Shown here in pieces: positions 57,001 through 60,000 of a stretch of DNA of 64,000 bases. The translations under genes and the position numbers were made by a program. Position 1 is the first letter of the stretch, and each line of letters opens with the position of its first letter. The notes beneath the pieces are model-generated. The model saw nothing but the letters and a program-made list of their open reading frames with translations. It was not told the DNA's origin and did no database searches. This DNA is from Hormiphora californensis (taxonomy: Eukaryota; Animalia; Ctenophora), in the NCBI GenBank assembly GCA_020137815.1, contig CM035353.1:1364001-1428000 (forward strand), written 5' to 3'.

Positions 57001-60000
57001 TGATGGAATGATAGATTTGTGTTCATTACTTGTATTCATTAGTGTTGTATTGTTCATGAGCGAGGGAATCCAAATTAACTAATATACTACGGTGCACAAA
57101 TATATCCCCACATTATACATTATCGAAACATTACTAACATGTTACTAACCCCCCCCCCCCCCACTACTAACCCATTACGGTGCACTCAGCGGGAGTGTAT
57201 CCCCACTTTATACACTACTAACCCCCCCCCCCCACTACTAACCCATTACGGTGCACTCAGCGGGAGTGTATCCCCACTACTAACCTACTAATAACCCACT
57301 ACTAACATGTTACTAACATGTTACTAACCCACTACTAACCCACTACTAACATGTTACTAAGCCATTACGGTGCACTCAGCGGGAGTGTATCCCCACTTTA
57401 TACACTACTAACCCCCCCCCCACTACTAACCCATTACGGTGCACTCAGCGGGAGTGTATCCCCACTACTAACCTACTAATAACCCACTACTAACATGTTA
57501 CTAACATGTTACTAACCCACTACTAACCCATTACTAACCCATTACGGTGCACTCAGCGGGAGTGTATCCCCACTTTATACACTACTAACCCCCCCCCCCC
57601 ACTACTAACCCATTACGGTGCACTCAGCGGGAGTGTATCCCCACTTTATACACTACTAACCCCCCCCCCCACTACTAACCCATTACGGTGCACTCAGCGG
57701 GAGTGTATCCCCACTACTAACCTACTAATAACCCACTACTAACATGTTACTAACCCATTACGGTGCACTCAGCGGGAGTGTATCCCCACGGTTCATAGTA
57801 GGAGGGAAAGACGCCCAGATGGCAGCCTCGCACGAAATCACCGTACGAGATGTTCAGCAGGGTCGAGGTGGAGGACAGGAACTCTGGATGATACACCACC
57901 TGCAAATTGGATAGGGATTAGAGGTGGATGATAGGAACTCGGGGTGATACACCACCTGCAAATTGGATAGGGATTAGAGGTGGATGATAGGAACTCTGGA
58001 TGATACACCACCTGCAAATTGGATAGGGATTAGAGGTGGATGATAGGAACTCGGGGTGATACACCACCTGCAAATTGGATAGGGATTAGAGGTGGAGGAT
58101 AGGAACTCTGGATGATACACTACCTGCAAATTGGATAGGGATTAGAGGTGGATGATAGGAACTCTGGATGATACACTACCTGCAAATTGGATAGGGATTA
58201 GAGGTGGATGATAGGAACTCGGGGTGATACACCACCTGCAAATTGGATATGTCAATAACAATAATAACAAGTTACTATATAATATGTCCGTTATGCTAAC
58301 GGCAAGATAGGTTCCTAACGGCTAACGGCAAGATATAGGGTCGCGACCGGTCGAGAAGGTGCCAAGGGATATAACAGCTGGTTTACCACAAAAGCAAATT
58401 AGTATTGGGTAGCTGCTTACAACAAACAGCTATGAACTAACCTTGACTTTGTCCGAATGATGATTAAAAAGTCGGACACGTTTGAGGTGTTGCATGATGG
58501 CGCTACCCTCTTCATTAGCTAGGTTATGGGTGACAATGGGTGGCAGAGATGTCCTCTTACTCTTATACAGGTAGTTCTTCAGCAACACCTCATCCGCTGA
58601 CGTAAGTAGCTTGTCACATGGCATCTGACCACTGTAAGGACCAGGTTAGGTTAGGTTGTAAGGGGGTTGTAAGGACCAGGTTAGGTTAGGTTGTAAGGGG
58701 GTTGTAAGGAACAGGTTAGGTTAGGTTGTAAGGGGGTTGTAAGGAACAGGTTAGATGTGGTTGTAAGGGGTTTGTAAGGAGGTTGGAAGTGGTTCGATAT
58801 ATCAGTATTCAGTGCTCGAGTTATAAGATTCATTGAAAGGTGCGTTAAATCAGGACATACCCAAGAACGCTATTAAAGATTCTATCTCCGATTCTCTTTT
58901 GAATGGTCTCCACGCTCTCTCGAAGTTTCTTGTGCTGTGCCTGTCCGTTGAGACTGTCCACATTGTAGTGATTCGTCTCCTCAGGGAATATCAGGAACGC
59001 TACAGAGGGGAGAGAAATAAGTTGTTTAATGTTTATACCGATCGTAGGTGGTTCTTGTTAAACTTGTTCAAACATTAAACAAAGTCTTGTCAGAGAATAT
59101 GGGTGTTCCAAATCAAGCTAGTTCATATTAATAATTACTATGAATTATGATAAGGATAAATTATCCTGGATAATCTATCTACACCTACCAATCACTGTTA
59201 TATCAATCCCATCTTTCTTCAGTGCATAGTTGAGCCGAGCAAGGGATTCCAGAAACATGTCCACCCCCTTGTTCGCGTATTCGTTCCTGGGAATTGATTT
59301 GATTTGATAAGAGCGGTTTTCCACACGTGAAAATATGAAGTTGCGCGCGAACCCGACCTTCGCCGCGCGGAGACACCAACTATTAAGGTATCGCGCGTTA
59401 CACCCTCTCAAGGGAACATCCCACACATCCCGTGCAAGTTCCGCGTGTGTGACTTTCTATGCTGCAGGGCCCTCTCTCAGTCACCTCACATCTCTGTCTC
59501 AAAATCACGCACACATCCCATATCATTGGAATATTATGCAGTAATAATAATGCGATAACGGCGTCCTGAAGGCATGTTGATAGGCAGAAACCTAATATAC
59601 CTAACCCAATATTTATTCGAAAAAGGAGTGACAGACACTGCGACAGAGGGATGGGAGAAGGCTTTTTAATTTTCTCTCATTTTCCCGAAATTCTGGAATC
59701 CTACCTTCCTGCGCTGAAGAAGAAAACCGTCTTATCGAGATCAAAATCAATATGACCATAAAAGTGCCCCTGAACAAAGTCACAAATCTTCTGCTTGGAC
59801 AAGGCATGTAGATTCTGGAACTCGTGTGTTGCACTGAAAATAAATTGATCTTTTCAGACTTGTCATCAGTTATGTAGAACACTTGTTCTAGAATCCTCCT
59901 TTACATTTGTAAAAGGACGATTCGAGCTAGACAATAGAACACCACAATAAAAAGATAGGTGGACTATTATTGGACCAATCAGGTCCCATCCAAGTGCAGG

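Follow-up and report, generated by a model that had tools for sequence, protein, structure and literature searches.

Minisatellites overlapping the acceptor and the donor of one glycogen synthase exon in a ctenophore

In amphioxus, tandem units at the 5' or 3' ends of exons, known as mirages, leave splicing undisturbed and have been described in Adh3, troponin C, the globins BflGb6 and BflGb9 and PGBD5; in the portions of these reports drawn on here, they are unstable in length and evolve in concert in a manner that spares the cluster edges (PMC3087553, PMC3902484). The 37-bp VNTR in intron 7 of human F7 has a first unit that spans the donor, and the most upstream of its identical donors is used; the excerpted report also cites related cases in CBS, 6-16, LAMIN B2 and PDGF (PMC1557585). 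Intron gain by tandem duplication of a segment containing AG|GT is the subject of the Rogers model and of a reconstruction in ATP2A1 (PMC3265369, in excerpt). Tandem repeats make up 13% of the genome of one ctenophore species, with a heterozygosity of about 3% (PMC8527503, in excerpt).

Here we analyse 64,000 nt of the ctenophore Hormiphora californensis (GenBank assembly GCA_020137815.1, contig CM035353.1, positions 1,364,001 to 1,428,000; hereafter, the window), in which arrays of copies accompany a glycogen synthase exon at each of its two ends. The structure belongs to the known class of mirages, and no function is shown for it.

Arrays at the focal exon and elsewhere in the window

Judged by its sequence, the gene is a ctenophore-type glycogen synthase. 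It occupies the minus strand with about 25 exons from 63866 to 30270, as mapped by tblastn with Bolinopsis and Mnemiopsis proteins; homology to glycogen synthase (Pfam PF05693) extends across the enzyme, and the first 10 mapped exons, when joined, keep one open frame, while the 5' end of the gene lies outside the window. The peptide of the focal exon, which begins VVYHPEF, matches glycogen synthases, with 5307 of 5578 candidate proteins passing E ≤ 1e-10. It aligns to residues 476-522 of human GYS1 and carries, in this alignment, counterparts of Glu510 and Glu518, which we take to have a catalytic role. A sequence-only reading of this DNA had proposed a catalytic glycogen synthase exon of 145 nt here, and positions 57899-57755 agree with that proposal, both in matching GYS1 and in keeping the frame open. 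The features of this part of the gene are as follows:

58442..58631, minus strand: upstream glycogen synthase exon (tblastn and boundary mapping)
57900..58250, minus strand: acceptor minisatellite, six extra 56-bp units (sequence)
57755..57899, minus strand: authentic focal exon, 145 nt (tblastn, frame joining and a short-read contig of another sample)
57135..57754, minus strand: donor minisatellite, seven extra copies (sequence)
57078..57127, minus strand: decayed outermost (eighth) donor-side copy, with a 7-base deletion and several substitutions
52992..53105, minus strand: downstream glycogen synthase exon (tblastn and frame joining)

The acceptor array lies in the 542-nt intron behind the donor of the upstream exon (AAG|GTTAGT). 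Each of its 56-bp units consists of an acceptor, the first 35-36 bases of the exon and a short spacer that contains a branch-point-like CTAAT, and the exon-like parts start, after AG, at 58235, 58179, 58123, 58067, 58011 and 57955. All six keep the AG and encode one and the same 12-residue peptide. Five units share the upstream context of the real acceptor, including CTAAT at -22, while the outermost has TTGAC at -20 in its place; thus, when judged against the branch-point consensus, the AG of every unit is preceded at 20-22 nt by a branch-point-like motif. The six additional copies of acceptor and exon start that the sequence-only reading had counted are therefore present, and they do use other synonymous codons than the exon, as it had also noted.

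On the donor side, where a 4649-nt intron leads to the downstream exon, the last 35 exon bases recur unchanged seven times, the copies ending at 57680, 57610, 57539, 57431, 57362, 57243 and 57172. The earlier count of seven extra copies of exon end plus donor holds for the exon ends; the donor is kept in six, since CT rather than GT comes after the copy at 57362. The spacers (34-84 nt) are made of 11-bp donor-derived subunits, with 26 GTTAGT motifs in total. These seven copies show no variation among themselves and the eighth, outermost one is decayed, a pattern of concerted evolution with the outer edge spared. Because the acceptor and donor arrays derive from stretches of the exon that do not overlap, and differ in their units, we regard them as products of separate events.

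Several further features of the gene were observed. A perfect 38-bp hairpin lies at 56390-56465 in the downstream intron, where short direct repeats cluster. In the focal exon, the codon at 57861-57863 (minus strand) encodes Thr in place of a Pro that is conserved in the relatives compared (STSTLL versus STSPLL); it sits exactly where homology to the 56-bp unit ends and is possibly a scar of exchange. Toward the C terminus, 51213-30210 (minus strand) encodes an extension of some 600 residues with K/E-rich repeated segments, which is common to the Bolinopsis and Mnemiopsis glycogen synthases and by homology points to a ctenophore.

To place these arrays in context, we took a census of 58 mapped splice sites in two genes, the glycogen synthase and a neighbouring peroxiredoxin-like gene; neither this census nor the array test below takes in a 14-kb gap or the unmapped end of the glycogen synthase exon that starts at 52890. 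Nearby copies accompany five of the 58 sites, namely the two focal sites, the acceptors at 63866 (3 copies) and 45215 (1 copy) and the donor at 24565 (44 copies). Three features belong to these sites:

63867..64000, minus strand: further glycogen synthase acceptor array (sequence; meets the window end)
24497..24565, plus strand: exon 4 of the 1-Cys peroxiredoxin-like gene (donor used in RNA)
24566..26748, plus strand: 44 extra units of exon end plus GTAAGT, of 52-, 50-, 49- and 40-bp types

Arrays make up 29% of the mapped intron bases, and 12 of 19 are no more than 50 nt away from an intron end, where 5.3 would be expected; without the two focal arrays the count is 10 of 17 against 4.8 expected (P = 6e-4). 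Random intronic AG or GT sites have nearby copies in about 20% of cases, more commonly than real sites do, under a null that is weighted by array length and in which, as in the count of exons starting with GT given below, at most two sites (of peroxiredoxin exon 4) are mis-placed. At the window's rate, the chance that some exon of 27 has both ends copied is 0.07-0.18, and we accordingly rejected a special status for two-sided flanking.

The array at 63867-64000 has three or more additional 35-bp copies of the acceptor, in which AG|AT replaces the AG|GT found at the start of the real exon. At the peroxiredoxin-like gene, so named for its motifs, an RNA contig (run X7, 537 nt, 2 differences) joins exons 3, 4 and 5 through the first of 45 donors; this is a single contig, and rare forms are lost from contigs. 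No contig of a relative (run X9) matched this exon, an absence that proves nothing. The array has several junction types, one of which requires exon bases that another lacks, and it contains shuffled haplotypes and higher-order blocks. Other observations around this exon include a duplicated block of about 14 units within the array, a very high-copy repeat just upstream of the exon (24430-24470), with a summed depth above 200000 in the short-read contigs of another sample, and a long inverted repeat in intron 4 (~27400-28200), recognised by eye.

Repeats of other kinds are also frequent in the window. A 16-bp array of 35 units (52018-52640 and 51356-51417, minus strand) grows from the end of the exon starting at 52890; its units read ELLSKG and vary only between TTA and TTG (22 and 13 units), which is silent in that frame. 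Six arrays end just upstream of acceptors (58633-58789, 60304-61141, 48080-48278, 47378-47469, 46317-46890 and 22209-22310) and repeat branch-point-like or pyrimidine-tract-like sequence without AG. The 11-bp array and exon start at 46200-46890 recur at 40850-41400 in an error-rich form, which is a decayed duplicate or else reflects poor assembly. One 31-bp unit forms two long arrays in opposite orientation, resembling foldback arms (1482-2509 and 3964-6208), and a 30-bp array in a glycogen synthase intron (49073-49472, minus strand) has an open Thr-rich frame with repeats like ATQSGTTTDADT and is possibly a nested or alternative exon.

Splice-site choice at the focal exon

Every alternative to the last acceptor and the first donor leads to a stop codon: all six decoy acceptors, all seven decoy donor copies and skipping of the exon. 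The proposals that these two sites are required, and that read-through of the units shifts the frame or meets TAA, are thereby upheld, the codon reached being TAG or TAA. No unit in the arrays combines an acceptor with the donor of the exon, and the copies are not complete in-frame exons. We also considered mutually exclusive duplicated exons and a new intron of the Rogers type, and rejected both, as all alternatives give stops.

Among the RNA runs X7, X8 and X9, no own-species contig covers the focal exon, where only foreign or distant glycogen synthase contigs were found; such absence from contigs proves nothing, and the X7 share of 56500-59500 is 0.06. One contig of the relative (X9) joins the end of the focal exon to the next exon, with 9 differences in 75 bases, its silent sites being too diverged to supply ancestral codons.

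The sequence-only reading held that use of the last acceptor contradicts simple first-AG scanning. Here it went too far, since every unit carries its own branch-point-like motif and scanning from a branch point to the first AG is thus not contradicted. What separates the real acceptor from the decoys is found only downstream, in the unique exon sequence and in the distance to the donor, which is 145 nt for the real acceptor versus 201-481 nt for the decoys; of 27 mapped internal exons, a single one is longer than 200 nt. Because the separating cues lie downstream only, cross-exon recognition is the likeliest rule, and exon definition is a reasonable reading at this exon, where the last acceptor is probably the one used. 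Removal of mis-spliced, stop-containing RNA may be an alternative route beside exon definition; decay of such RNA is an established pathway.

Normal mRNA could also be obtained without strict exon definition if decoy acceptors were used and then rescued by AG|GT re-splicing onto the real acceptor. The exon starts with GT and all six decoy acceptors have AG|GT, so that joining of the upstream exon to a decoy would rebuild a donor, AAG|GTAGTG or AAG|GTGGTG. In the two GTAGTG units the rebuilt donor scores 5.5, a value that falls among those of real donors (-1.4 to 10.3 by leave-one-out, with a matrix built from 28 sites), and would leave introns of 224 and 280 nt, which are ordinary sizes in the window. 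However, the other four rebuilt donors score 1.5, beating only 2 of 28 real donors, GT at the exon start is unremarkable here (15 of 30 exons), the decoys of the 63866 acceptor are without this GT, and re-splicing does not apply to donor arrays; we therefore consider this route unlikely. Somewhat less likely still is that the arrays are a selected regulatory device, in which the number of copies adjusts the share of RNA that is channelled into stop-containing forms and destroyed, and so sets the enzyme level. Stops from every alternative would fit such a device, as would the intact decoy signals (AG in 6 of 6, GT in 6 of 7), and two pseudo-donors, in human CBS and 6-16, are in use (as cited in the excerpted PMC1557585). 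However, homogenisation with the real junction already predicts intact signals, arrays like these are also present at other splice sites and in an unrelated gene, the outermost donor-side copy decays freely, and a regulatory device does not predict silent-only variation. Nor does the codon pattern point to use of the units at the protein level.

Variation among units and support for the arrays

The acceptor units differ from the exon at five positions, all of them silent (six of six with the junction base), where a proportion of 0.26-0.31 is expected (P = 0.001-0.003); with the six bases AAT-CCC of the unit included, which may or may not represent an older state of the exon, 8 of 10 differences are silent. 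Four of the silent differences segregate among the units, and all six units have CTA where the exon of today has CTG. In the peroxiredoxin array, the variants found in at least 5 of 44 units are all silent (5 of 5) and those found in 1-2 units are all non-silent (3 of 3), a split between common and rare variants that was chosen after inspection of the data; alone, this array gives 5 silent of 8, which is not significant (P = 0.08-0.11). For the two arrays combined, variants that are spread among units or differ from the exon are synonymous in 10 of 10 cases, against about 30% expected (P = 6e-6 to 3e-5). With all variants counted, 10 of 13 are silent (P < 0.003), and without two CpG-type changes 8 of 8 (P < 3e-4). 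The focal donor copies are invariant and hence give no codon test, the decayed copy being left out. An earlier hint that unit codons reflect states of the exon thus finds statistical support.

One Leu codon of the peroxiredoxin array has three states, 13 haplotypes occur in 45 units, and all four combinations are present in 5 of 6 column pairs, so that more than one import and subsequent shuffling are needed. Silent exon alleles appear to be plentiful, since the six listed differences in other haplotypes of the peroxiredoxin exon are all silent. None of the array variants was found among these six alleles, the array-variable columns falling where letters are unlisted; two exon contigs of another sample (X5) each have two further unlisted differences, in stretches that include array-variable columns, which fits exchange. 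No acceptor-unit variant was found in the focal exon of X5. As the units cannot be usefully translated, the simplest reading is that the exon was the source of the common variants, which came through selection there before they were imported repeatedly and then shuffled among units.

The sequence of the arrays was compared with X5, which consists of short-read contigs of that other sample, assembled rather than raw. These contigs contain 0.70 of the sampled words and cover 29 of 29 bins of 57700-57960, and one of 146 nt is identical to the focal exon of the window. Their summed depth reaches at most 4435 and 3786 on the repeated ends versus 627 on the exon core, depth not being equivalent to copy number. 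They show spacer indels within the arrays and yield no copy number; none bridges a junction by the 31-base rule. The unit junction had 0 matches among the metagenome contigs scanned. Contig cover and depth support the existence of the arrays.

These data bear on two accounts that would dispense with exchange or with the arrays themselves. Had each array been seeded once, with the exon drifting silently and the units mutating neutrally without later exchange, a single old snapshot would give CTA in all six acceptor units against CTG in the exon, and CpG decay could account for 2 of the 10 variants. The variants that segregate among units are, however, all silent too (four acceptor columns and five peroxiredoxin alleles), unlike neutral intron mutation; the peroxiredoxin array combines junction types that require different exon bases, and a CpG at which mutation would change the protein stays invariant in 44 units, so that we regard a single seeding as very improbable. 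Even harder to credit is that the arrays are an assembly artefact produced from alleles or noisy reads. Arrays elsewhere in the window do look error-rich (60304-61141 and 40850-41400), and no array is spanned by a single contig. Against this, the contigs of the second sample contain two or more variants of the unit sequences, with raised summed depth, the peroxiredoxin unit junction and raised depth are found in both X1 and X5, and the junctions of the units are precise and recurrent.

Interpretation and comparison with known systems

We conclude that two separate minisatellites overlap the acceptor and the donor of this exon as mirages, and that they are likely harmless by-products of slippage that splicing probably skips. 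They would have originated by slippage at short microhomologies in a repeat-rich genome, after which repeated unequal exchange between exon and units would import protein-selected exon alleles and shuffle them between units. The last acceptor would be picked by cross-exon recognition, in which the nearest two sites are paired across the exon, because five decoys match the real acceptor upstream and differ from it in downstream sequence and donor distance. Any mis-spliced RNA would be cleared by nonsense-mediated decay.

A bolder reading, which we put forward tentatively and think rather doubtful, is that mirages are running archives of exon alleles with two-way exchange, feeding silent variants back to the exon, and that the choice of the last among six identical acceptors reveals distance-based exon definition in ctenophores. 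If true, exchange would be so frequent that selection on the protein reaches non-coding intron copies.

Ctenophores are one of the earliest-branching animal lineages. The locus widens the known range of mirages to this group and offers a natural minigene for 3' splice site choice in an early-branching animal, with five upstream-identical competitors. Through the silent-only variation of the units, exchange between a coding exon and its copies in the introns becomes measurable, and such exchange would in addition generate mutations at the ends of exons. Arrays of this type confuse gene prediction and short-read variant calling.

Recursive (ratchet) splice sites are zero-length exons of the form AG|GT, and the decoy acceptors resemble them in being followed by GT, such that a donor would be rebuilt; they differ in the short intron and in the weak rebuilt donors of four of six units. 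With the Rogers model our arrays share a copied segment containing AG|GT and splice signals, whereas here the junctions of existing introns are copied, the units are out of frame and no route restores the protein. The F7 VNTR is similar in its identical pseudo-donors and in use of the first site, as in the peroxiredoxin array of the window (one contig); in contrast, its units contain 4 exon bases versus 35-44 here and lie on the donor side only, making a codon signal impossible.

The closest match is with amphioxus. In the BflGb6 units of supplement 4 of PMC3087553, we count by eye 24 substitutions within the exon-derived sequence, of which about 17 are silent, and one silent allele, also recognised by eye, is found both in the haplotype-2 exon and in its own units. 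Silent bias goes unremarked in the portions of the amphioxus mirage papers considered here, with 'synonymous' occurring 0 times in the main text of PMC3087553. In searches of the literature outside subscription papers, neither a report of such a bias nor a ctenophore mirage was found; the original mirage paper, Canestro et al. 2002, may already describe the bias or two-sidedness. Like amphioxus mirages, the arrays of the window are head-to-tail, span an exon-intron border, mostly keep AG or GT, and are homogenised inside with a divergent outer edge, while they differ in their ctenophore host, in the presence of arrays at both ends of one exon and in the nested 11-bp subunits of the donor array.
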